Assembly: GCA_038062675.1 (NCBI GenBank)
Contig: JBBTWP010000005.1
Span: forward strand, 43,844-107,843
DNA length: 64,000 nt
Source: Patescibacteria group bacterium
Lineage (GTDB): Bacteria > Patescibacteriota > Minisyncoccia > Phycocordibacterales > UBA1550
Reading direction: 5' to 3'
How positions within the stretch are numbered: the first letter of the stretch is position 1; each line of letters begins with the position of its first letter. Shown piece after piece: positions 6,288-64,000 of the stretch. Made by a program: the position numbers and the translations under genes. Under the pieces are notes generated by a model, which was not told the origin of the DNA, did not search any database, and saw only the letters and a list, made by a program, of their open reading frames with translations.

Positions 6288-7307
6288 TTATAAAATCACC
6301 ACTTCTTCCTCGAGAACAATCCCCGTTTTTTGAAAAAGACTGCCTCTCATTTTTTGCGCAAGATTTAAAATTTCTTGCGCCGACGCTCCACCATAATTCA
6401 CTAAAACAAGTGATTGTTTTTTGTACACTCCCACATTTCCACGCCGCACCCCACGCCAACCACACACTTTATCCAAAAGCCATGCAGCAGAAAGCTTTAT
6501 TGTTCCATCCCTTTGTACATAAGCCTTTATTTCAGGGTATGTTTTTTTAAGGCTCTCAAACACATCCACAGAAACAACGGGATTTTTAAAAAATGAGCCA
6601 GCCGTCCCGAGTGGGGGTGCCGGCATTTTTGCAGTGCGAATAGCAATAATTGCACAGCGGATATCTTCAAGTGACGGTGCATTATTATTTTGTGTTAAAA
6701 AATACTTCTTCACATCTTCGTAATCAGTTTGTGCTTTTTCTTCACGACCAAGTTCAAGCGCCGCACGTACGACAATTAAATTTCGATTTGTTTTAAAAAT
6801 ACTTGTACGATACCCAAACATACATTCACTGCGCAAAAAAATCTTTGTCTTCATTGTTTGCATGTCATATGCTTCGACCCAAAGGACACTGTCGCACACC
6901 TCAACACCATACGCGCCGATATTTTGTACTATGGCACCACCGAGAGTTCCTGGAACGAGCGAAAGATTTTCAATACCCCACAACCTCTCTAAAACTGCAG
7001 ACAGGACGACGTAGTCCCATCTTTCTCCCGCACCAACAATCATGCGTACGCGATTTCCCTCATCCAACTCAAAAGAAATACCCTTGCACTCTACCTTCAT
7101 AACAAGGCCTGAAAATCCCGTATCAGGAATCAGTACATTCGATCCACCACCAAGTACGAGTAGTGGAATGTTTTTTGCACGCGCGAACGAAACCACTTCA
7201 GATATTTGTGAGGCGCCAGTAATTCGCACAAAAAAACGCGCCGCACCTCCCACAAGCATCGTGGTCAAAGGGGCGAGCGCTACTCCTTCTTCGATTTGAA
7301 TATTCAT
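6288..7307 (-). CDS. murB: UDP-N-acetylenolpyruvoylglucosamine reductase MurB
   Basis: FAD-binding N-terminal domain (LAPLTTMLVGGAARFF, LVLGGGSNVL). The C-terminal MurB domain runs to ...GSLFQKTGIVLEEEVVIL. Confidence 0.9.
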   Translation of the reverse strand: MNIQIEEGVALAPLTTMLVGGAARFFVRITGASQISEVVSFARAKNIPLLVLGGGSNVLIPDTGFSGLVMKVECKGISFELDEGNRVRMIVGAGERWDYVVLSAVLERLWGIENLSLVPGTLGGAIVQNIGAYGVEVCDSVLWVEAYDMQTMKTKIFLRSECMFGYRTSIFKTNRNLIVVRAALELGREEKAQTDYEDVKKYFLTQNNNAPSLEDIRCAIIAIRTAKMPAPPLGTAGSFFKNPVVSVDVFESLKKTYPEIKAYVQRDGTIKLSAAWLLDKVCGWRGVRRGNVGVYKKQSLVLVNYGGASAQEILNLAQKMRGSLFQKTGIVLEEEVVIL

Positions 7308-7379
7308 ATAGTGAAAGATGAAAAATCTTTGTTGGAACCTCTATCCCCCCCCAAAAAAAATGTGGCAGAGGCAAATACT

Positions 7380-7526
7380 TACTTTGAGTTACGGAACTCG
7401 TCGACGACACTTGCTTTTAAGGGGGTTTCGAGCGTGACGACGCGAGAATTTCAGGATTTTTTAAGCTTTAAAAAATCCGTACCCTTAAAAGCAAGTGTCG
7501 AGTAAAGAGTTCCGTAAATCAAAGAT
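7380..7526. repeat. about 147-nt long imperfect inverted repeat (large hairpin or MITE-like) with a nested perfect 25-nt palindrome
   Basis: Arms are gttacggaactcgtcgacgacacttgcttttaaggg and cccttaaaagcaagtgtcgagtaaagagttccgtaa, with 19 nt perfect plus 11 nt perfect and a bulge. The loop contains ggattttttaagctttaaaaaatcc, a perfect palindrome on AAGCTT. Confidence 0.6.
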
Positions 7527-7542
7527 ACTTAATAATTCCCGT

Positions 7543-7607
7543 ACTCTTTTGGCCAGCGTGGGCGAACCCCAACAAATGTCTAATATGTGAGTGCAGACGC
7601 TGGCCAA
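7543..7607. repeat. 14-bp perfect inverted repeat hairpin (cttttggccagcgt / acgctggccaaaag) with about 37-nt loop
   Basis: Seen directly in sequence. Part of the hairpin-dense noncoding gap 7308-7863. Confidence 0.55.
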
Positions 7608-7799
7608 AAGAAAACAGGAGCTTCTTTTCTATTGTAGGTGATTTATGTCTTGGACGCAAACAGACGCGCAAAACCCCGCTTTCGCGGGGCCTTACGCAGA
7701 CATTCGTTTGTTGAATATGCCCTAAAGTTTCCTTCGGAACACTCACATAAAAAAAGTATATCAGATTTAACTTAAAAGTCAAGCTTTTCGATTCTGCGG

Positions 7800-7839
7800 A
7801 ATCGTGTCGCGTAAGTCCTTTAGACGCGACACGATTCCA
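7800..7839. repeat. 14-bp perfect inverted repeat hairpin (gaatcgtgtcgcgt / acgcgacacgattc)
   Basis: Immediately 3' of the stop of the 7864-10047 minus-strand gene. No flanking T-run, so this is not a classical intrinsic terminator. Confidence 0.5.
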
Positions 7840-7863
7840 CCCACGAGATGACTTGATGGGTTT

Positions 7864-9981
7864 TTAAAGATTTTTTCCTGCCTCAATCCCTCGAATAAAC
7901 GACTCCCCTTTCTCTTTGAAAGTCGGATCAATCTCGATCGCTTTGCGTATCTCGGCAAGTGCTTGTGGGCGCCTACCAGTGTTCAAGTACAAGGATGCAA
8001 GATTGAGACGCACATCGATGTTCATCGGGGTTCGCGCAAGATCTTCCTTAAAAACCCTTTCTATCTCATCGTATTTTTTCATCTCAACCAATATTTGTAT
8101 GTAGAACTTTTTAGCATCTACGTACAAAGGTTCGAGTTCGTATGCGGTACGAAACACTTTCTCTGCCTCAGCAAAATCTTTTTTCACATACTGTGCATTT
8201 GCAAGCTCAAAGAGAATCGTTTGTTTTTTTGGCGAAAGCTCTACCGCTTTTTTCAAATACGGAAGTGCGTCATCAATCGCCCCAACACGAGAAAGAAATG
8301 AGCCGGCAAACACTTGGTAGCGAGCATCGTTTGGCAAAAGTTTTGCTTGTGCAACAATCTCCTGTGTCGCAAGTCTCAAAAAATCCTCTTGGTCTTTGGT
8401 AATCGCTTTTGACCTGTCGAGTCCGTTTATCGAGATTTGCGCAAGCTGCTCACGCGTCTCGCTCGTGCCATACGAATTATATGCAATCGCCTCTTTGAAA
8501 AGTGCGATGTTATGCGGGAGTCCACCATTTGATGTTTGATTGCTCATTGCATTAAGAAGTGTGGTGTTTTGAGCGATTCCTTTATAGTTGACCCCGTACA
8601 CCAACACTACTGCGAGCACAACCGCTCCACCCAAGATAAATGGTGCGAACTCGGACAATGATTCTTGCATTCGAGATGCATGCTTTGCGGAGACAACTCC
8701 TTCATGACTCAAGCTTTCAATGTATGCCAAAATGGCAAAGAAAACCATGAGACTGGTGATATTGTCGAAGACAAAAAGGTTTTGAAAAAAGTATCCACCC
8801 AAAAGCCCTGTAAGAACGCTTTTCTCAACGACAGACAGGGTCTTGTTACGACGCCAAATAGCATAAAGCGCAAACCCAAACAACCCAAGGTATGCAAGAA
8901 GTGCTGGGAGTCCGCCTGCAATCAGCCAGTCGAAAAACACATTGTGTGCTCGGTCGAACCACTGCTCTTGGCTATACATTCGCGGATTGTAATATTCATT
9001 GAAAACATAATTAAAGTTTTCCATTCCCCATCCGAGTACCGGATGTTCTTTGAAACCCTCTATTGCCATTCCCCAAATCATGAAGCGAGACTTGGTTGTT
9101 TGCTCGTCGAGAGATATTGAAGCAAAGCGGTTGAGCACCGGACTTTCGCGAACAAATGTCGCGTCGCGAACTGCCATAAATCCTCCAACAAAGAGCGTCA
9201 GCGCAACAAGGATGCCAATAGCGCCACGGCGAAGCAGAGTGCGCTCACGCTCAAAAATCGCGATGAGTAGCGTTGCAAGACCAGCCCCCGCAAGAAAACC
9301 AAGTATCGCACCGCGGGTGGCAGTATGATAGAGCACAAATATTTGGAGCGCCACGAGAAGTCCGTACATTGCAACACGCACTCGTTCCCCTGTGGTGGTA
9401 AAACTTTCGCGCACCATCAAAAACGCAGCAAGAAAAATATTGAAAAGTGCGTATGAACCAAGATATGCCGCATTACCGAGCGTACCATTCACGCGATTGC
9501 CATCCTGAACAATCTCAACCATTCCCGCCCACTGAAGAACCCCATATCCTGCCATAATAGCGCCCGCGACAAGATGCAGATTGAGGTAAGGACGCCAGAG
9601 GCCACGCACTGTGAGCACTGTAGAAGCAACCAAAAAATATGCAGCGAGGTGAAAGTATGTGACTACCCCCTCCATGCGCTCAAAGTTTGACCAAAAACTT
9701 TTAGTTGGATTTTCGCCAAAAATTGCGGCAAGAGTAATGATGCCAATAAAGACAGCGAGCGTAGCGAGCAAATGGCTTTTCTTTGGGCGATATGCCGGAT
9801 CGAGAATCGCTAGCACGAGCCACGCAGAGAACATGACCTCAACCACAATTCGGAACGCAAAGTTTTTCCCAACAATAAAAGGGAAGAAAGTTGAATTCGA
9901 CAAAATAATAAAGGGAATAAACGGGATGACCGCAAACCCCACAAGCACCACCGCATTCGCCAACATTTTTTGGATATTCAT
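7864..9981 (-). CDS. O-antigen ligase (Wzy_C/WaaL-like) polytopic membrane protein fused to C-terminal TPR repeats
   Basis: About 10 TM helices with a large periplasmic loop in the Wzy_C pattern (RGAILGFLAGAGLATLLIAIF...). The C-terminal ~200 aa form TPR-like helical repeats (AEKVFRTAYELEP..., ALAEIRKAIEIDP). The start is uncertain: ATG at 9981 (MNIQKMLANAVVL...) or 10035, and the track start at 10047 is GTG. Confidence 0.75.
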   Translation of the reverse strand: MNIQKMLANAVVLVGFAVIPFIPFIILSNSTFFPFIVGKNFAFRIVVEVMFSAWLVLAILDPAYRPKKSHLLATLAVFIGIITLAAIFGENPTKSFWSNFERMEGVVTYFHLAAYFLVASTVLTVRGLWRPYLNLHLVAGAIMAGYGVLQWAGMVEIVQDGNRVNGTLGNAAYLGSYALFNIFLAAFLMVRESFTTTGERVRVAMYGLLVALQIFVLYHTATRGAILGFLAGAGLATLLIAIFERERTLLRRGAIGILVALTLFVGGFMAVRDATFVRESPVLNRFASISLDEQTTKSRFMIWGMAIEGFKEHPVLGWGMENFNYVFNEYYNPRMYSQEQWFDRAHNVFFDWLIAGGLPALLAYLGLFGFALYAIWRRNKTLSVVEKSVLTGLLGGYFFQNLFVFDNITSLMVFFAILAYIESLSHEGVVSAKHASRMQESLSEFAPFILGGAVVLAVVLVYGVNYKGIAQNTTLLNAMSNQTSNGGLPHNIALFKEAIAYNSYGTSETREQLAQISINGLDRSKAITKDQEDFLRLATQEIVAQAKLLPNDARYQVFAGSFLSRVGAIDDALPYLKKAVELSPKKQTILFELANAQYVKKDFAEAEKVFRTAYELEPLYVDAKKFYIQILVEMKKYDEIERVFKEDLARTPMNIDVRLNLASLYLNTGRRPQALAEIRKAIEIDPTFKEKGESFIRGIEAGKNL

Positions 9982-10102
9982 AATACTGGGAATTATACCG
10001 CGTAGGGAGCGAGGATGCAAACAAAGCGGCAACATTTCTTCGCACACAAGAATACCGACTCATGCTACCCAACAATGCCCGAATAGTGTAGCATATCCAT
10101 AT

Positions 10103-11404
10103 ATGAAAAATCTTATTGAGCGAGCCAAAATCACAGCATACCAGCTTCTCCGCAAAAGCGAGAAATATACCAAAACAGACATGGTCTATCTCACCAAGGG
10201 CGGTTTTTGGCTTGGAGTAGGGCAAATAATTTCCTCGGTAGCAATTTTTTCACTAGCAATCGCTTTTGCGAACCTTATGTCGCAAGAAACTTATGGAACA
10301 TACAAATATGTCTTATCAATAACAGGGCTCCTCACCATACTAACATTAAGGGGGGTGGACTCTGCAGTACTTCAATCAGTTGCCCGCAATTTTGAGGGAG
10401 TACTTATTCCTGCATTAAAGACGAGGATAAGGTGGGGGCTTCTCAGTGCCACCAGCAGTATATGTATTGCAATATATTATTACATCAACGGAAATAATAC
10501 ACTCGCTATATCCTTTTTGATTGCGTCAGGATTTTTACCTTTTATAGATTCATTCGGAATCTATAACGCCCTTTTAAACGGCAAGAAACTATTCCACCTG
10601 TCAGCCACTTATGCGGCAATCAGCCAGATCGGTAGCGCTATTACAATGGCTGGAAGTTTATTTTTTACAAAAAATTTATTCACCATTCTCTTTGTATATT
10701 TTTTATCATGGACATTATTTCGTTTTGTCTTTTTTATGGTCACCATAAAAAAATTCCCGCCGAACAACAAAATTGATCCAGAGACCATCCCCTATGGAAA
10801 GCACTCGAGTCTGATCAACATCTTTGACGCTCTTGTTAGCTCCGTGGATGGATTGATTGTGTTTCACTATCTTGGTTCAGTCAATCTGGCAATATATTCT
10901 TTTGCGCTTGCTCCTGTTGTCCAAATAAGAGGTCTTTTAAACAACATCCCTACTCTTGCCATACCAAAATTATCAGCTCGGTCCTCAATTGAAATTGAAG
11001 TGGTGCTCAGGAAAAGAATCCTTGCATTATTTGCACTAGGGGCTTTCATTTCTCTTGCGTACATTCTTGTTGCGCCATATATTTATCAAATATTTTTCCC
11101 CAAATATATTGACTCTGTATTTTCTTCACAATTATTCTCCCTCGCAATTGCATTATCCCTACCACAAGTGATTTTCGGCTCAACAGTAGGATCTAAGCTT
11201 ACGCTTATCCCAAAAAAAATGCTTTACTTGTGGAATATACCGGGGGTTATATTCATCATTTCTGTCCTAACTCTTATTGGAGCATTCGGCGTGAATGGCG
11301 TTATTTTCAGCAGACTACTTTCAATTACCTCTGGGTTTGTTATCAACTGCATTATCTGGAAAAAAATAAAAAAGATTGAAGCTGAAAGTATGCTGAAAAT
11401 CTAA
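10103..11404 (+). CDS. Wzx-type polysaccharide/oligosaccharide flippase (MOP superfamily)
   Basis: About 12 TM helices with MATE/Wzx-like topology. The start is set at the internal ATG 10103 (MKNLIERAK...), because the track ORF from 9659 overlaps the convergently coded O-antigen-ligase gene. A tataat-like box lies upstream. Confidence 0.75.
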   Translation: MKNLIERAKITAYQLLRKSEKYTKTDMVYLTKGGFWLGVGQIISSVAIFSLAIAFANLMSQETYGTYKYVLSITGLLTILTLRGVDSAVLQSVARNFEGVLIPALKTRIRWGLLSATSSICIAIYYYINGNNTLAISFLIASGFLPFIDSFGIYNALLNGKKLFHLSATYAAISQIGSAITMAGSLFFTKNLFTILFVYFLSWTLFRFVFFMVTIKKFPPNNKIDPETIPYGKHSSLINIFDALVSSVDGLIVFHYLGSVNLAIYSFALAPVVQIRGLLNNIPTLAIPKLSARSSIEIEVVLRKRILALFALGAFISLAYILVAPYIYQIFFPKYIDSVFSSQLFSLAIALSLPQVIFGSTVGSKLTLIPKKMLYLWNIPGVIFIISVLTLIGAFGVNGVIFSRLLSITSGFVINCIIWKKIKKIEAESMLKI

Positions 11405-58329: not shown

Positions 58330-58899
58330 CTACCACGTCATTTTTATCATCATCTCACCAAGAACAGTCCCTCCTCCAAAATCCAACCCGTTAGCTCGAG
58401 CATTTCCCGTACTTAAGTCCCCGTCATCCAGTATCCTATCAATCTCAAGCAACACATTCGTCGGAATGCGCCCCCCATTATCCCCACCCCCCATACCGGG
58501 ACGATCATCATTAAGATCGACAACATAATCATTTCCTCCCCCGTCAATGTCATAATCGTCCGTCGGTCCAAATGCACCCCCCCATGGATGAACCTTGCCG
58601 TACATAACTCCATACGGTCCTGCCCATCCGGAAACACCGAGACTATTCATGAGCGGATCATTTATTGCCGAGCACGGAAATGCGCACTGCGGATTAATCC
58701 CTGTATCAACATAATATTGATACACACTTTTAGAAAGTTCTTTAACCTCAATGACAGTTTTAGCTATTTGGGCTTTCTCCCGAGCTTTTGATATTGCAGC
58801 CAGAATAATCCCCGCAAGAAGACCGATGATTGCAATGACAATCAGGAGTTCGGTGAGGGTAAAGCCTCGAGAAGTATTCGATTTCATAAAACTGGTCAC
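58330..58899 (-). CDS. type IV pilin / pseudopilin (prepilin-type N-terminal cleavage-methylation domain)
   Basis: SRGFTLTELLIVIAIIGLLAGIILAAI is the class III signal peptide with G-F-T-L-T-E. Gly/Asp-rich C-terminal globular part. Confidence 0.88.
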   Translation of the reverse strand: MTSFMKSNTSRGFTLTELLIVIAIIGLLAGIILAAISKAREKAQIAKTVIEVKELSKSVYQYYVDTGINPQCAFPCSAINDPLMNSLGVSGWAGPYGVMYGKVHPWGGAFGPTDDYDIDGGGNDYVVDLNDDRPGMGGGDNGGRIPTNVLLEIDRILDDGDLSTGNARANGLDFGGGTVLGEMMIKMTW

Positions 58900-58905
58900 A
58901 CAAGC

Positions 58906-61900
58906 TTAGTTCGTTAAAATATCTTCACCAACATCTTGCGTGCTAGTAGCAGTGATTGCCGGCGTTGTTGTGGCAATAGGGACTACAATAGGATTTGGGT
59001 CAACCACATTCACTATACGCATTGCTTCTGCGAGCATCGCTCCTGCGCCGTTAATAACTTTGTAAACAATTTCGTGCGTACCCGTCACGCTTGTATCGAT
59101 AATTGGGGTTGTCACCTCTGCGCCATTTTGAAACGCCCGTACTCCCAAATTCACAAGTACCAAATCCGTCGAACTTGCAGTGGCACCAAGATCCCCCCAT
59201 GCTGTTTTCAAATTAACCGTCTGTGGGTTATTCCCGCTAACGATAATTTCTACAGGAGCAGTGGTTGTTGCAATCGGCATAACACTCGCAACCACGCCCG
59301 CATTTTGAGAACCCGGAGTCGTGGCGCCCGAAAGCAATTTATCAAGCTCCACCTTGGTAACACACGTCTCCCCGCTTACACTATCCCCCACGCAGAGCGT
59401 CTTCGTGTGAACACGGTTTGCAAAGAAATCTCCTATGCCATTTGCAACACTTGCGAATTTCTCCGTAATCTGCGCAAAAATATTCGAGAAGAAACTTGAA
59501 GCAAATGAACGAGATTCAGGGGTCGAGCTTGCGGTGGTACCTGCGATGGTTTCAAGGTTGAGGTTAAGCTCTTGCACCGCACCTACCGTGAGGCCCGTGA
59601 TGCGCTCAAAATGAAGCGTGAGTGGCAACCCATCGTAACCATAATCAACGAGCCGAGGATCAACCTTCTCCACTTCTTCCGCAATCAAACCAACAGATGC
59701 AGGACTCTCTTCAGGGCTTGCATATTCGCTTTTATAATCAAACGATACGACTCGCAACTTACCTAATGTCGAAAGTGCCTCTCGAGGAGTGAGTGCCTGA
59801 ATATTCTCTTTGAAACGTTGCGAGGATGGCGTACAGGTACCACCACCGGCGTCGGTGATGTCTTTCCCTGTTGTAATACAGAGCGCATTCCCCGTTGCGG
59901 AAGACGTCAGTCCGTTAAGTGCCACCGTACCATTCACTGAAAACGTACGCCATGGCGTAGTAGAAGCAATACCAATATTCCCGAGGAAATACCCCGTTCC
60001 ATTGTCATTAAACTTTGCAATGGTTGTTGAAGCATTGTTGGCGATCTCGAATGCTTGACCAGTGCCGGTACCACTTCCCCAGACAGAGAGCTTAGAATAA
60101 GGGGTCGTGGTGCCGATGCCCATAAGCCCCCCTACGGTAATCGCGGCCCGCGTACCACCATTAGTGAGGAATCGCAAATCATGATTACTCTTAGTGCCAA
60201 GAACTCCCACACCACCATTACTATTTGTTCCAGCGCAAGATGAACCAGCATGACCATGACAATCACCGATTACCATATCCACAGTACTATCGTTATTGCG
60301 TACTGTCAACGTAACATCAGTCGTGGAATTCCCTTCAAAAAGAAACTGTGTTGTAGCATTGGGACTTTGGTAGGTAGTTCCATTTGCAAGCACTGCCAAA
60401 GCAGCATACCCCGCATCATTTGTATTAATTCCCACAAAAGGATCGCCACCATAACCACTTCCTGTATAAATAAGAGGCTTTGAAGTGTTCCCCGAGCTAT
60501 TGTACACTGCAAACGGAGAATTCTGCCCCGTCTTCGCCTGCACTGCAAAGCGGTTTCTTCCCGGCGTCGTGGTCCCCACAAAGAATGAACCCATCGCGGT
60601 GGAGGTTGCCGTGGTACTCGTCGCCGTAAAGTACCCTGCGATGGCTTCGTTGCCCAACGTGGAGGAACCTTCAACGGAGAGGGTGTAGGCAGGGGTTGAA
60701 GTGGAAAGACCCAATCTACCTGCCGCGCTTAATGTAAGGTACTCCACAGCATTATTGCGAAGGTTTAAAAGTTTACCTGTTGTTGCTGCGCCTGATGAAT
60801 CAAGAAAGATGCCTTGAGCTGCTGACGCTGTTGAAGTGGAAGTGAGGAGCAAGCTAAGGGCAGACGCATTTGTGTCGACACCAGAACCATTGTGTGTGAT
60901 TTTCACTGTTCCTTTGCCTATTTCATTCCCCGTCACACCAAATGCTGAGTAATCTTCTTTTACTGAAGTGACGGTCGCGCATTCAAGGCTACTCCCTGTC
61001 ACAAGATCGCAGTTTACAACCAACGCACCACTCGTTCCATCTTGGTCAAAATAAGCTACCTGCTGGTCAAAGGCGGAATTATCCGCTGTTATTGCCAAGA
61101 GTCTGCCCGAAGCTGTAGCTCCTTGATTGTTATAAATAACTAACCCTGCCCCTGTTGAGTTGGTCGTCGTAAGGTTCACCACGCCTCCTGTTGAAACCGA
61201 CGCTGAATAATCTTTTCCTGACGGAGCAATAATTCCTAAAAGGTTTTGATTTGTTGAGTCAGTTCCAATACGGAGAGTATTCGCAAACGTACTCGTGGCG
61301 GTGGTAGAAGTGGCAATAATATAGTTTACCGTAGGAGATGTGGATGCCGTCAGTGTAGAGCCGTCGCTATGCAACCACCCCTGACCAAACGAGGTTTGCC
61401 CTGTTCCACCTCGCGCAACAGAGATTGTGCCACCATTCCAAGTACCTGATGTGATCGTACCCAACGTGGTGAGGTTGGTCGAACCCGCCCACGTGGAGAG
61501 TGCAGTGTTTTCAACATTGTTGAGTGCTAGAGATGATTTGAGGTTTGCGGTGGAGGTGCCTGCGAGGGTTCCCGTGCCGGATGCATAGAGAAGGTCACCG
61601 AGTGTATAAGAAGAGAGGCCGGTACCACCACGAGCGACCGAGAGCTGCCCACTCCAGCCCAGCGCATGTGCTGTTCCTGAGCTTGCAATGGTAACATTGG
61701 TGTCGTCCGTGAATGTTTGAGTGGCACCGGTAAGTCCATTTAACGACGTGAGACCACTGCTCCCTCCCCCCAGTGCTGTGCCATTAAAATAGAGCGAACC
61801 TCCGGTGTTGTAGAGACGATTTGTTGTCACCGATGGTGCGCTCACTTGCGCAAAATATGCAGGTCCGTTTACTGAAAGTGTGTCCGAAGGAGATGAAGTG

Positions 61901-62841
61901 CCCACACCTACACGACTGTTCACAGAATCGACATAGAGCGTACTTCCAAAATTTGACGCTCCAGTGAATGATGCGGTTGCTCCCGACACAGCACCAGTAA
62001 AAGCACCACTGGAACCCGAAAGAGTTCCATCGAAAGTGGAGCTGGTGATGGTGGCACCCGAAATGGTGACGTTGGAGAGGTTGTTAATACGGTTTGTGAG
62101 TGCAATAGCAGCATAGTTGTCATTTGCGCGCGTGTTGGCATTTGATGCGACGCGATATATTTCTGTCTTGAGTGCATTCTCAAGTTGATTGAGGCGCTCA
62201 GTAAGTGATGTTTCAGAAACACCACTCACTGTTGTGGTCGGCACCTCCACGGTACGCTCGATGACGCGCTCGATGACAGTGCGGACGGGGGCACTCACCG
62301 TAACAGGTACATCCCGTTTTACGGGAATCGAAACAGGCTCATCTTTTTTGACATCTTGCTCGGGAGGTAATTCTCTCTGAGGAGGAGTTTGTTGAGTTGG
62401 AGTAATTTCAATCGGTGGCGGAATTTCTTGCAGTGGTTCAGGTGCGGATTGGGTATTATTTTCTTCCGGCGATCCGAAAAAGAGATTACTAAAAAAACTC
62501 CTAATACTGCTCCATACAGATGCTCCCATCCCGTCTACGGTCGCGAGCAAGTTTTGTCCCACTTCAGTTGTCCTCGAATCAAAAATTGATAAATTGCTAT
62601 CTTGAATTATTTCTGGCTCAACTGTCTCTTCTGATACAAAAGAAAAACTGGTGCGATCTGACAGCACTTCTCGAAAACGATTCTCAGTATTTACCCAAAT
62701 ATCTCTAACTGAGTTTTGCGAAACTATATTTTTCAAAAAAGAACCATCTTGAGCAAATGAAACATTGAACGGCGCAAAGCATACACTTATGGTAAAAATA
62801 CCAAAAATTACATAATGTAAAAATGCGTGCGTAGCGCGCAT
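58906..62841 (-). CDS. giant (about 1,300 aa) secreted fibre-like surface protein, with S/T/G/A-rich beta-rich repeats and an internal peptidase-S74 intramolecular-chaperone-like domain
   Basis: Signal peptide (MRATHAFLHYVIFGIFTISVCFAPFNVSFA, start placed at ATG 62841), then a Pro/Glu linker. About 850 aa are low-complexity G/S/T/A/N-rich, as in tail-fibre or collagen-like proteins. The S74-like domain is SSQRFKENIQALTPREALSTLGKLRVVSFDYK...GLIAEEVEKVDPRLVDYGYDGLPLTLHFERITGLTVGAVQELNL, followed by about 250 further residues. Confidence 0.8.
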   Translation of the reverse strand: MRATHAFLHYVIFGIFTISVCFAPFNVSFAQDGSFLKNIVSQNSVRDIWVNTENRFREVLSDRTSFSFVSEETVEPEIIQDSNLSIFDSRTTEVGQNLLATVDGMGASVWSSIRSFFSNLFFGSPEENNTQSAPEPLQEIPPPIEITPTQQTPPQRELPPEQDVKKDEPVSIPVKRDVPVTVSAPVRTVIERVIERTVEVPTTTVSGVSETSLTERLNQLENALKTEIYRVASNANTRANDNYAAIALTNRINNLSNVTISGATITSSTFDGTLSGSSGAFTGAVSGATASFTGASNFGSTLYVDSVNSRVGVGTSSPSDTLSVNGPAYFAQVSAPSVTTNRLYNTGGSLYFNGTALGGGSSGLTSLNGLTGATQTFTDDTNVTIASSGTAHALGWSGQLSVARGGTGLSSYTLGDLLYASGTGTLAGTSTANLKSSLALNNVENTALSTWAGSTNLTTLGTITSGTWNGGTISVARGGTGQTSFGQGWLHSDGSTLTASTSPTVNYIIATSTTATSTFANTLRIGTDSTNQNLLGIIAPSGKDYSASVSTGGVVNLTTTNSTGAGLVIYNNQGATASGRLLAITADNSAFDQQVAYFDQDGTSGALVVNCDLVTGSSLECATVTSVKEDYSAFGVTGNEIGKGTVKITHNGSGVDTNASALSLLLTSTSTASAAQGIFLDSSGAATTGKLLNLRNNAVEYLTLSAAGRLGLSTSTPAYTLSVEGSSTLGNEAIAGYFTATSTTATSTAMGSFFVGTTTPGRNRFAVQAKTGQNSPFAVYNSSGNTSKPLIYTGSGYGGDPFVGINTNDAGYAALAVLANGTTYQSPNATTQFLFEGNSTTDVTLTVRNNDSTVDMVIGDCHGHAGSSCAGTNSNGGVGVLGTKSNHDLRFLTNGGTRAAITVGGLMGIGTTTPYSKLSVWGSGTGTGQAFEIANNASTTIAKFNDNGTGYFLGNIGIASTTPWRTFSVNGTVALNGLTSSATGNALCITTGKDITDAGGGTCTPSSQRFKENIQALTPREALSTLGKLRVVSFDYKSEYASPEESPASVGLIAEEVEKVDPRLVDYGYDGLPLTLHFERITGLTVGAVQELNLNLETIAGTTASSTPESRSFASSFFSNIFAQITEKFASVANGIGDFFANRVHTKTLCVGDSVSGETCVTKVELDKLLSGATTPGSQNAGVVASVMPIATTTAPVEIIVSGNNPQTVNLKTAWGDLGATASSTDLVLVNLGVRAFQNGAEVTTPIIDTSVTGTHEIVYKVINGAGAMLAEAMRIVNVVDPNPIVVPIATTTPAITATSTQDVGEDILTN

Positions 62842-62961
62842 TTTTTTTCTCTGTATTCGAATAAAAAGATTACTCCCCATACATTTCATTTTATCATACT
62901 TATGCACAATAAAAAACAAATTTCTGTGCATAAGTATCGCAATAAACAAAATGTGCCCCAC

Positions 62962-63009
62962 ACAACCCAAACCCCCATATCACTGGCGTGATATGGGGGT
63001 TTGGGTTGT
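62962..63009. terminator. hairpin terminator (22-bp stem)
   Basis: acaacccaaacccccatatcac-tggcg-tgatatgggggtttgggttgt, lying downstream of the minus-strand gene that ends at 63031. Confidence 0.7.
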
Positions 63010-63030: not shown

Positions 63031-64000
63031 TTACATCGTATTCAACTTCCCTCTCGTCTTGGGCCCGAGGTTCCCATACCCCGGAAGGTTAGGTCCCGAG
63101 ATTTGGTACTTCTCCTGGAAGAGCTTGAGGGCTTTGAGGGTAAGTGGTCCAAAGTACTGAGTAGGAGTTGCGGTAAAGAATCCTTCTTGTGCGAGTACTT
63201 GCTGGAGTGCCATGACGTCAGCGCCACGGGATCCCACAAAGAGCATGCGCTTGAAGGTGGTGCCGGTAGGTGCTGGGGTCGACGCACCCGGAGTGACGGT
63301 TGTGGTGGTAATTGACCTCTGTGCCAGAATGCTGTTTGCTTTGGCGCGGGTGGTGGTTGCAAAAGTGCCATCGGAGACTGCTTGTCCTCCTCCACCAATC
63401 TCACTTCGGTATTTTGCTTGGAATTTGACGAGGGCTGTTTTGGTTGCAGGACCAAAGTAGCCGGTGGGTGTTGCAGTCAGAAGCTTCTCTGATACCAAGA
63501 GATTTTGGAGGGTGGTGACGAGTGGTCCTTTGTCCCCTACTTTAAGCTCGGTGGTGAAGACTGGAGTGAAAGTGACAGTCGGTGCAGGGCAAAGTTGTCC
63601 CGTGGTGGTACTGAAGCGGTTGGTGCCGGCACAGCCAGGAATGGATGCTCCGCCACCTTGTGTGGGAGTGGGAACAATGACAGGTTGCCCTGTGGCGGCT
63701 ACGGAAGACGTGACCGTCACGACGTTACTTTGTATAGAAGGAGGGGTCACAACGACAGGAGCAGGTGCAATGCTACCTCCTCCGCCCCCTGACGAACCGC
63801 CACCAGAACTTCCACCTCCGGCACCACTTAGAGCGGGTGCGGGTGCAGCCACAGAGACATTGGTTGACTGGGTTGCTGTGCCACAGGTTAAGGTAAAGCT
63901 TGCAGCAGAGCCAATGGAGCTAATGGTTTCCGTACCACTCAAACCTTTTGTACCACTCCAGCCACCGGATGCAGAACAAGTGCTTGCATTGGCGGATGAC
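63031..64000 (-). CDS. peptidoglycan-binding-domain (PG_binding_1 x2) protein, 5' end outside window
   Basis: Two PGBD repeats: LKVGDKGPLVTTLQNLLVSEKLL...GYFGPATKTALVKFQAKY and LFVGSRGADVMALQQVLAQEGFF...QYFGPLTLKALKLFQEKYQI. A Gly/Ser-rich linker and Thr-rich N-terminal region. The frame stays open to the window edge, and the track start at 63942 is TTG. Confidence 0.75.
   Translation of the reverse strand, partial: SSANASTCSASGGWSGTKGLSGTETISSIGSAASFTLTCGTATQSTNVSVAAPAPALSGAGGGSSGGGSSGGGGGSIAPAPVVVTPPSIQSNVVTVTSSVAATGQPVIVPTPTQGGGASIPGCAGTNRFSTTTGQLCPAPTVTFTPVFTTELKVGDKGPLVTTLQNLLVSEKLLTATPTGYFGPATKTALVKFQAKYRSEIGGGGQAVSDGTFATTTRAKANSILAQRSITTTTVTPGASTPAPTGTTFKRMLFVGSRGADVMALQQVLAQEGFFTATPTQYFGPLTLKALKLFQEKYQISGPNLPGYGNLGPKTRGKLNTM

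Follow-up and report, generated by a model that had tools for sequence, protein, structure and literature searches.

An internal S74 intramolecular chaperone and a conserved cassette behind it in surface fibres of Patescibacteria

The window analysed here is a stretch of 64,000 nucleotides from a Patescibacteria group bacterium (GTDB lineage Bacteria; Patescibacteriota; Minisyncoccia; Phycocordibacterales; UBA1550), taken from contig JBBTWP010000005.1 of the GenBank assembly GCA_038062675.1 (positions 43,844 to 107,843 of the forward strand). Its minus strand carries a gene for a predicted surface fibre of 1311 amino acids (aa). In this protein, a Peptidase_S74 intramolecular chaperone is followed by a small helix-hairpin-helix module, an immunoglobulin-like (Ig-like) domain and a short acidic tail. 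Sequence comparison indicates that the cassette made of the module, with or without the Ig-like domain, and the low-complexity tail is a defined unit widely conserved in Patescibacteria. The analysis thus exposes an unannotated, lineage-wide cassette present in at least 613 protein clusters and placed nearly always behind one of two apparently unrelated self-cleaving domains.

Results

The S74 domain of the fibre and its catalytic dyad

The Pfam Peptidase_S74 model (PF13884) matched aa 1006-1065 of the fibre with an E-value of 1.7e-11, and the score of 44.7 bits exceeds the cut-off of 22. When the last 326 residues were compared with the sequences in PDB, the best matches were the intramolecular chaperone auto-processing domain (ICA) of MYRF (7dc3, E 6e-5) and the tip of the long tail fibre of phage S16 (6f45, E 2e-4). 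In the alignments, TP-SSQRFKENIQ of the fibre stands opposite HP-(A)DLRAKEHVQ of MYRF, where A is the S587A crystallisation mutant of 7dc3, and opposite SSDRRIKKDI of gp37. The catalytic Ser/Lys dyad was located in this way at S1006 and K1011 in TP-SSQRFK; as aligned, these residues are the counterparts of the dyads S911/K916 of endoNF, S587/K592 of MYRF and S1264/K1269 of T5 pb1 (PMC8326128, PMC4690869). The sequence around the predicted scissile bond reads ...DAGGGTCTP before it and SSQRFKENIQALTPR after it. A proline directly precedes the catalytic serine both in the fibre (Pro1005) and in MYRF (P586-S587). A loop bounded by two cysteines lies just upstream of the bond, and the pattern C-x(n)-C-x-x-SS recurs in close homologues. 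An earlier note on this DNA, made from the sequence alone, had proposed an S74-like chaperone domain lying inside the fibre and not at its C-terminus. With the profile match above its threshold and the dyad found, this observation is confirmed.

A monomer model of the C-terminal 326 residues was built with AlphaFold2 (AF2) on 48 homologues and had a mean predicted local distance difference test score (pLDDT) of 78.6. Over most of aa 1006-1104 the pLDDT was ~90 or higher. The top Foldseek match in PDB was again the MYRF ICA (7dc3, E 4.9e-6), and the next ones were PKD and Ig-like domains, which matched the beta-sandwich further downstream. Among viral models, Foldseek found 139 S74 proteins at E<=1e-3; those listed were mostly aligned over ~100-160 columns, which is roughly the chaperone part. 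The helix 1078-1104 seen in the monomer model is shorter than its counterpart in MYRF. Judged by both profile and dyad, aa 1006-1104 is assigned to the S74/ICA family.

The Pfam match is followed by 246 residues and Ser1006 by 306 residues up to the end of the protein, which agrees with the non-terminal position described in the earlier note. The distance from this serine to the C-terminus has a median of 129 residues in canonical relatives (n=59) and of 274.5 in module-bearing relatives (n=112). The figure of about 250 further residues given in that note holds when counted from the Pfam match. However, the Pfam S74 model has only 58 positions, while the chaperone domains of phages comprise 133-154 residues. 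Because the fold continues past the ~58 residues at its start that the model covers, ~40 of the further residues (to ~1104) still belong to the chaperone, and the true extension beyond the chaperone fold is ~207 residues long.

The anatomy of the C-terminal extension

The extension, for which the earlier note predicted beta-rich segments, is not beta-rich throughout: besides an Ig-like beta-sandwich it contains a long helix, a cysteine hairpin, a short helix, a disordered hinge and a short tail. In the AF2 model, the module consists of a long aromatic amphipathic helix (1108-1143, pLDDT ~60-72), a beta-hairpin (1148-1162, pLDDT ~80-86) closed by Cys1150 and Cys1160, and a short helix (1163-1173, pLDDT ~75-86). 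The aromatic and aliphatic residues of the first helix are spaced by 3-4 positions in a pattern of the bundle type. The hinge that comes next (~1175-1192 in the model, pLDDT <50) is likely flexible. The beta-sandwich at aa 1197-1280 was modelled with a pLDDT of ~90, and Foldseek matched it to PKD/Ig-like domains with a target-normalised TM-score of ~0.6. The window protein itself matched PF16403 under the cut-off of 27 (E 0.0024, 18.3 bits), and the homologous segments of its relatives pass that cut-off.

Conservation and distribution of the module

In an exhaustive phmmer search with aa 1100-1178, 613 cluster representatives reached E<=1e-3, of which 164 also reached E<=1e-10; the first number is to be read as a lower bound on the module-bearing protein clusters. 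A word-indexed search with the 84-aa module alone returned one fragment, its index being too coarse for such a short query. The module lies close to the C-terminus in every case, and the proteins that carry it reach 6358 aa. For this reason the fibre, which the earlier note called giant, is large at 1311 aa and not giant within its family. Across 30 diverged copies of the module the mean column identity was 66% and both cysteines were invariant, the consensus being ..SFAxSFFxNLFxRITxWFADAANGIGDFFANRVxTKELCVxDxSGxETCITKAQLDALLAG. Compared with the relative L011, the module is 50-58% identical and the other parts of the protein are 12-35% identical. The module matched no Pfam or NCBIfam model, and neither a sequence match nor a significant fold match was found in PDB.

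The genome scan in GTDB gave 38 module loci, all of them on contigs of Patescibacteria metagenome-assembled genomes (MAGs). The lineages were Giovannoni-, Kaiser-, Nomura-, Zambryski-, Gottesman-, Magasanik- and Doudnabacteria, Paceibacterota and Minisyncoccia, and some of the loci had been deposited merely as "bacterium" or as third party annotation (TPA) assemblies of uncultured Saccharibacteria. No copy of the module was found in the 2.9 million viral contigs of IMG/VR. Among named homologues, the one closest to the C-terminal part is a "DUF5011 domain-containing protein" of Candidatus Kaiserbacteria, and about 12 first-round homologues share the order S74, linker, Ig-like domain. Downstream of the module, the representatives continue with a hinge rich in Gly and finish in an acidic tail of low complexity; in 48 of 137, an Ig-like domain lies between the two. 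The tails of the relatives are longer than that of the window protein and contain 18% P, 15.5% T, 12% E, 12% S and <1% K+R.

The alternative reading in the earlier note, a new domain arrangement, stands in part. The arrangement is recurrent and specific to Patescibacteria, but an internal S74 domain has a precedent in MYRF, and the extension is not idiosyncratic, being shared by hundreds of clusters. A cassette behind a chaperone and an alternation of S74 with a G2-like domain were not found in Pfam, NCBIfam, PDB or the literature searched. The literature search on S74 or intramolecular chaperones in the candidate phyla radiation (CPR)/Patescibacteria, whose coverage excluded subscription journals, yielded nothing relevant.

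Two further observations concern the family as a whole. Many giant members (P0105, P0110, P0117, P0119, P0125, P0142, P0158, P0159, P0164, P0172, P0175 and P0192) have a conserved cytoplasmic N-terminal segment resembling HTH_17 (helix-turn-helix, HTH), with the consensus ..YLSAxEAAxxxGxxxDYIxRLCREGKLxGKxxGRxWYV.., followed by a transmembrane (TM) helix at ~100-200 and a huge ectodomain. It is puzzling that a surface fibre should have a fold of the DNA-binding type on its cytoplasmic side. The contig CAZQMS010000002.1 (L027) of a TPA 'Saccharibacteria' MAG carries two adjacent genes, with open frames at 0-6708 (2236 codons) and 6716-10958 (1414 codons), each of which ends in S74, module and Ig-like domain; this pair indicates that fibres with the cassette have multiplied locally as paralogues.

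Coupling of the module to self-cleaving domains

For the top 137 representatives, the domain directly upstream of the module was classified with local hidden Markov models (HMMs). It was an S74 chaperone in 97 representatives and a Peptidase_G2-like domain in 25; one representative had both, four had neither, and ten were truncated at the N-terminus and uninformative. Therefore, a self-cleaving chaperone domain directly precedes the module in 123 of the 127 informative representatives.

In the S74 copies preceding the module (representatives <=50% identical to each other), the serine is kept in 108 of 109, the lysine in all 109 and the arginine of the motif in 88. The alignment of the sole copy lacking the serine is doubtful. 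We argue that a dyad so nearly invariant in 109 diverged internal copies points to selection on catalysis. On this ground, the release of a C-terminal fragment, which was one of the two options offered in the earlier note, is the most likely predicted outcome.

The G2-like domain has an invariant D-x-A-E-x-[YF] motif and a core of the form GRVPxKV...GPIxIGD...PGVGMKA; its members (alignment A4) include P0104, P0113, P0115, P0117, P0118, P0125, P0128, P0129, P0137, P0138, P0146 and P0207. The profile of this domain matched the cleaved auto-chaperone fragment of phi29 gp12 (3gqh) with an E-value of 0.0064, and the alignment begins at residue 1 of that fragment (DFAEYF). The Pfam Peptidase_G2 model, "IMC autoproteolytic cleavage domain", matched five of 14 G2-like members, with a best E-value of 6.4e-6. 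Since the same cassette stands behind two apparently unrelated autoproteolytic domains, its detachment seems to be the point of the arrangement.

Tandem S74 pairs were seen before a single module in P0102 (673-766, 862-959), P0105 (1442-1529, 1571-1664) and P0186 (312-409, 453-540). The S-D/S-x-R/N-x-K motif is intact in each of these domains, and the three proteins therefore have two possible cleavage sites.

The fibre gene and the part upstream of the chaperone

The fibre gene lies within an open reading frame (ORF) at 58906..62970 of the minus strand, in which the ATG at 62841 is the likely start. The predicted product has a mass of 135 kDa and a pI of 4.8, and the same 1311-aa product was predicted by independent gene callers on eight metagenome contigs of the Hainich aquifer (well H41, 0.1-0.2 um fractions). 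The span 58906..59950 holds the stop codon and approximately the last 347 codons of the ORF (aa ~965-1311). The peptide quoted from it in the earlier note is encoded verbatim, on the minus strand; translated from the plus strand, the span has many stops. Nothing supports the antisense ORF of 187 codons that overlaps the C-terminal region, and it most likely results from the base composition that the coding strand happens to have. The coordinates of all these features are collected in Table 1.

Table 1. Features of the fibre gene and its surroundings in the window
Feature	Residues (aa)	Position in the window	Strand	Basis
Fibre gene	1-1311	58906..62841	-	1311 codons and stop at 58906-58908; ORF list and translation
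Signal peptide or anchor (MRATHAFLHYVIFGIFTISVCFAPFNVSFA-QD)	1-31	62749..62841	-	Kyte-Doolittle scan
Pro/Glu-rich spacer	~126-200	62242..62466	-	Composition: aa 101-200 has 15 Pro, 11 Glu
Octapeptide SVARGGTG, first copy	401-408	61618-61641	-	Exact repeat
Octapeptide SVARGGTG, second copy	474-481	61399-61422	-	Exact repeat
HylP-like triple-stranded beta-helix domain	~547-711	60709..61203	-	Pfam PF07212, E 6e-22
Fourth and last copy of the stalk motif	957-969	59935..59973	-	Regex
Cys988...Cys1003 loop	988-1003	59833..59880	-	Cysteine positions
Catalytic motif S1006-S-Q-R1009-F-K1011; predicted scissile bond Pro1005-Ser1006	1006-1011	59809..59826	-	Alignment to MYRF ICA and phage S16 gp37
S74 intramolecular chaperone fold (C-terminal intramolecular chaperone domain, CIMCD/ICA), last helix 1078-1104	1006-1104	59530..59826	-	PF13884 and AF2
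Post-chaperone module (68 aa; helix / disulfide-hairpin / helix)	1108-1175	59317..59520	-	AF2 secondary structure, phmmer
Hinge	~1176-1194	59260..59316	-	AF2 pLDDT <50 (model residues 190-207)
Ig-like beta-sandwich (DUF5011 / Bact_surface_Ig-like type)	~1195-1282	58996..59259	-	Weak match to PF16403 and AF2
Short Thr/Pro/Ala-rich acidic tail	1283-1311	58909..58995	-	Sequence; low model confidence
Antisense ORF (TTG start)		58936-59499	+	
Upstream neighbour (303-aa ORF)		63031-63942	-	
Downstream neighbour (185-aa prepilin-type protein)		58330-58887	-	

In the Kyte-Doolittle scan, aa 4-30 formed the sole TM-grade hydrophobic segment of the whole fibre protein, and a signal-peptidase site SFA-QD at aa 31 is plausible from the sequence. 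A Gly/Ser/Thr-rich stalk comes after the Pro/Glu-rich spacer. It contains four copies of the motif G-[VIL]-[GAS]-T-x-x-P-x-x-x-[LF]-S-V, starting at aa 312, 711, 908 and 957, where 0.001 copies were expected from 2000 shuffles. This motif was derived from the fibre's own repeats and its likeness to the capping-loop consensus of MAT and MYRF (PMC10769870) is approximate only; the published MAT consensus, searched as first written, had no match in the fibre protein. The octapeptide SVARGGTG is repeated exactly in the Gly/Thr-rich stalk, 73 residues apart, which suggests that a stalk unit was duplicated within the protein.

The region aa ~547-711 was aligned over ~160 residues to HylP1, HylP2 and HylP3 in PDB (E ~1e-19 to 6e-20) and to PHROG 2332, hyaluronidase (E 6.5e-22). 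The proposed catalytic residues of HylP1 are Asp137 and Tyr149, a dyad missing from HylP2 and HylP3 (PMC11669647). In the chain alignment, the fibre retains the equivalent of Tyr149 and has Thr at the position of Asp137. The HylP-type domain may be a polysaccharide lyase for the envelope of a host cell, or it may be purely structural. The fibre protein has four closely spaced cysteine pairs, and because the cysteines are paired, an extracellular location fits.

Genomic setting and lineage

The ORF upstream of the fibre gene runs off the end of the window and is the C-terminal end of a 2939-aa protein (L001:1-2811) with Kelch/beta-propeller, fn3 and PG_binding_1 matches. Two very large surface proteins thus stand head to tail. 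The prepilin-type protein encoded 18 nt after the fibre stop has an N_methyl motif and weak GspG/T2SSG similarity, and its gene is probably co-transcribed with the fibre. Further downstream are a 176-aa protein of unknown function, SNase, L31, RF1, two tRNAs and Mur ligases; phage structural or lysis genes were not found near the fibre gene. A fibre associated with type IV pili was considered and dropped because the adjacency is not conserved: an ORF with a prepilin motif lay within 1.5 kb downstream in none of the 38 GTDB loci.

Most CPR/Patescibacteria are uncultured; they are ultra-small bacteria and presumably live attached to other cells. The taxonomy was based on the genome scan of the module loci and on the named relatives of RF1, which belong to Yonathbacteria, Nomurabacteria, Paceibacterota and Minisyncoccota and are 72-77% identical. 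We conclude that the fibre gene is a chromosomal gene of an ultra-small groundwater member of the Patescibacteria (CPR, Parcubacteria-type) and not part of a prophage. The cellular neighbours, the exclusively patescibacterial module loci and the absence of the module from viral contigs all bear out the non-phage setting assumed in the earlier note.

A phage-like locus deserves separate mention. The gene 26-1663 (P0016) on a 35.8-kb Logan contig from SRR29564168 (L005) encodes a terminal S74 domain that is 69% identical to that of the window protein and lacks the module. P0016 has matches among the tail-fibre PHROGs; two genes for M23 peptidases and numerous small ORFs come after it, and a methylase is among the neighbours, so that L005 is probably a phage of Patescibacteria. 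The likeness of the S74 domain in such a locus suggests that phage and host fibres have recently exchanged the chaperone module.

Discussion

Proposed maturation of the fibre

We think it rather probable that the S74 domain nucleates trimerisation of the fibre, then cuts the Pro1005-Ser1006 bond and sheds a cassette of 32 kDa. Following export by way of the N-terminal signal peptide, three C-terminal regions would associate via the chaperone helices, presumably into a homotrimer, and the upstream beta-helical stalk would fold on the chaperone as a template. Once a correct trimer had formed, the Ser1006/Lys1011 dyad would cut and a fragment of 306 residues and 32.1 kDa, comprising the chaperone, module, hinge, Ig-like domain and short acidic tail, would be shed. 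The mature fibre of ~99.5 kDa (aa 32-1005), including the HylP-like beta-helix, would stay on the cell and expose a new beta-helical tip. In T5 pb1 and Bd3182 the removal of S74 unmasks a binding tip (PMC4690869, PMC10769870), and by analogy the exposure of a binding surface is plausible here. The N-termini in the family are signal peptides or, in about 14 members, an HTH-like domain with a TM helix; because the family is held by these N-termini, the cassette would be distal or the last part to be exported. The cassette would act as a lineage-wide, detachable C-terminal pro-region, in which the module, whose bundle-type helix and disulfide-locked hairpin would be suited to this, may serve as a second element of oligomerisation or registration and as a handle for a conserved assembly partner. 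Both options of the earlier note appear to apply, the arrangement being recurrent and lineage-specific and its logic being the release of a fragment.

Several points weigh against this course of events. Cleavage is inferred alike for the window protein and for all module-bearing relatives, and the structural basis is a monomer AF2 model in which the pLDDT of the module is just 60-86. The oxyanion arginine, which in endoNF and T5 comes from the neighbouring beta-helix, was not identifiable in the fibre sequence. It is puzzling that an Ig-like domain of the adhesin type and a strongly conserved 68-aa module are kept on a fragment that is discarded, and since the module is conserved more strongly than the fibre, it may do more than assist folding. 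In four representatives the module occurs with neither S74 nor a G2-like domain. Finally, the G2-like assignment is weak to moderate: its match at the cleavage motif is specific, but the scores are weak.

More tentatively, and at odds that we would put well below even, the module, the acidic tail and the optional Ig-like domain might form a detachable cassette, specific to Patescibacteria, by which large and giant surface proteins are assembled or sorted; a conserved partner in the envelope or assembly machinery would recognise it, and the S74 or G2-like domain in front of it would remove it. If true, this would be a new kind of C-terminal pro-domain, whose logic resembles that of the C-terminal domain of the type IX secretion system (T9SS) or of sortase signals, but whose removal is autocatalytic.

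Alternative explanations

The same features could be read as a release of the MYRF kind, where the cassette stays with the envelope or the assembly machine as a retention or sorting handle and cleavage, as a release under quality control, frees either the N-terminal trimer of the fibre or its distal end. We regard this as unlikely. The module is the most conserved part of the protein, both against L011 and in column identity, as one would expect of a motif that a conserved partner recognises, and its coupling to two kinds of self-cleaving domain fits such a release as well as it fits the shedding of the cassette. ICA cleavage in MYRF can release an N-terminal trimer (PMC3742443), and with a plausible SFA-QD signal-peptidase site the N-terminus of the fibre need not be anchored. 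However, the ~14 family members with an HTH-like domain and a TM helix are fixed in the membrane at their N-termini. No TM helix, LPXTG-type or other known anchor follows S74, the maximum hydropathy there being 1.69 inside the hinge/Ig region; the tails are acidic, disordered and highly variable, and the module has no recognisable wall-binding fold. A strict analogy with MYRF, with a C-terminal membrane anchor, was rejected, since no hydrophobic segment follows S74.

If the S74 domain did not cleave at all, it would be an internal trimerisation clamp and the Ig-like domain a permanent distal adhesive tip. Ig-like/DUF5011 domains are common as tips of adhesins, the NS74 MAT fibres of Bdellovibrio end in beta-sandwich tips (PMC10769870), and the fin of the P22 tailspike is cited as an uncleaved auto-chaperone (PMC4690869). 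This is nevertheless an improbable explanation, to which we give little credence: Ser, Lys and Arg of S-x-x-R-x-K are near-invariant in the 109 diverged copies, a G2-like autoprotease with an invariant D-x-A-E takes the same position, and the MYRF ICA cleaves autonomously in heterologous hosts (PMC3742443). An Ig-like domain present in about a third of the representatives (48 of 137) cannot be the general purpose of the arrangement. As for a tail-fibre gene derived from a phage or prophage, with the extension as a receptor-binding add-on, the HylP-like and S74 parts are of kinds typical of phages and the closely similar chaperone of P0016 lies in a phage-like locus. Yet P0016 itself lacks the module, the fibre has a signal peptide, its flanking genes are cellular, and the 38 GTDB loci of the module all lie on Patescibacteria MAG contigs, while none was found in the viral contigs. 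A prophage origin was rejected on the cellular context and the viral contigs, and we hold any phage derivation of this kind to be very improbable. The shedding of the cassette after trimerisation thus remains the reading that we prefer.

Significance

The interpretation offered in the earlier note is supported in part: the S74 identity, the dyad, the non-terminal position and the cellular setting stand, but the novelty of the internal position, part of the supposedly extra sequence, the idiosyncratic extension and the giant size do not. The enzymology of S74, its internal position (MYRF) and cellular S74 fibres (MAT) were known already; the widespread cassette after the chaperone is new as far as the searches go. 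A quality-control device of phages, the self-cleaving trimerisation chaperone, appears to be used in chromosomal surface fibres of Patescibacteria, as in the predator Bdellovibrio. For S74 biology, this would be a second natural case, after MYRF, of an internal domain in which both cleavage products may matter. Fibre maturation in Patescibacteria gains a concrete handle, namely one bond and one 32-kDa product, and the module provides a sequence signature for spotting Patescibacteria surface fibres in metagenomes.

Comparison with known systems

The S74 chaperones of phages (K1F endoNF, T5 pb1, S16 gp37 and GA-1 gp12) belong to the same family by HMM and fold, have the S-x-x-x-x-K dyad, and likewise have a beta-helical or fibre stalk upstream and a helix after the core. 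Their mechanism is a self-cleavage that depends on trimerisation (PMC4690869), and the same is expected for the window fibre. In phages, however, S74 ends the protein (133 aa in pb1; ~90-160 aa from serine to C-terminus in this arrangement), whereas in the window protein 306 aa follow from the serine, with two further folded units, in a secreted protein of a cell.

The eukaryotic membrane-bound transcription factors MYRF/MrfA gave the best PDB match by both sequence and fold and share with the fibre the internal ICA and the proline before the serine. The internal ICA of MYRF cleaves at P586-S587 through the S587/K592 dyad (PMC3742443, PMC8326128), and cleavage of the window fibre would likewise yield two separate fragments, presumably trimers. 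Unlike MYRF, the fibre has no TM helix or MRF_C after the ICA and no DNA-binding domain (NDT80) before it, as judged by Pfam and the hydropathy scan, and it is predicted to be extracellular with an N-terminal signal peptide.

The functionally nearest system is the MAT fibre family of Bdellovibrio bacteriovorus, a bacterium that lives on other cells. In its S74 subgroup, 13 MAT fibres end in a cleaving S74 domain, and self-cleavage has been shown for Bd3182 (PMC10769870). These proteins are likewise cellular, phage-like and equipped with a signal peptide, and their stalk has a related repeated loop motif, G-x-G-T-x-x-P-x-x-x-L (PMC10769870). Set against the MAT fibres, the window fibre showed a signal-peptide-like N-terminus, four related, non-identical loop motifs and a match to the HylP-type triple beta-helix. 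In the MAT fibres, which come from a different phylum, S74 is terminal and is not followed by a helix-hairpin module, an Ig-like domain or an acidic tail.

The pre-neck appendage gp12 of phi29 (Peptidase_G2) follows the same logic of a self-cleaving C-terminal chaperone, and a G2-like domain replaces S74 in about one-fifth of the module-bearing relatives. In gp12, however, G2 is terminal, the similarity is weak, and the window protein itself has no G2-like domain. Finally, the HylP1-3 proteins of streptococcal prophages (PL16) have a triple-stranded beta-helix that is matched by aa ~547-711 of the fibre; the position of the HylP1 aspartate is threonine in the window protein, where the domain is set in a much longer fibre.

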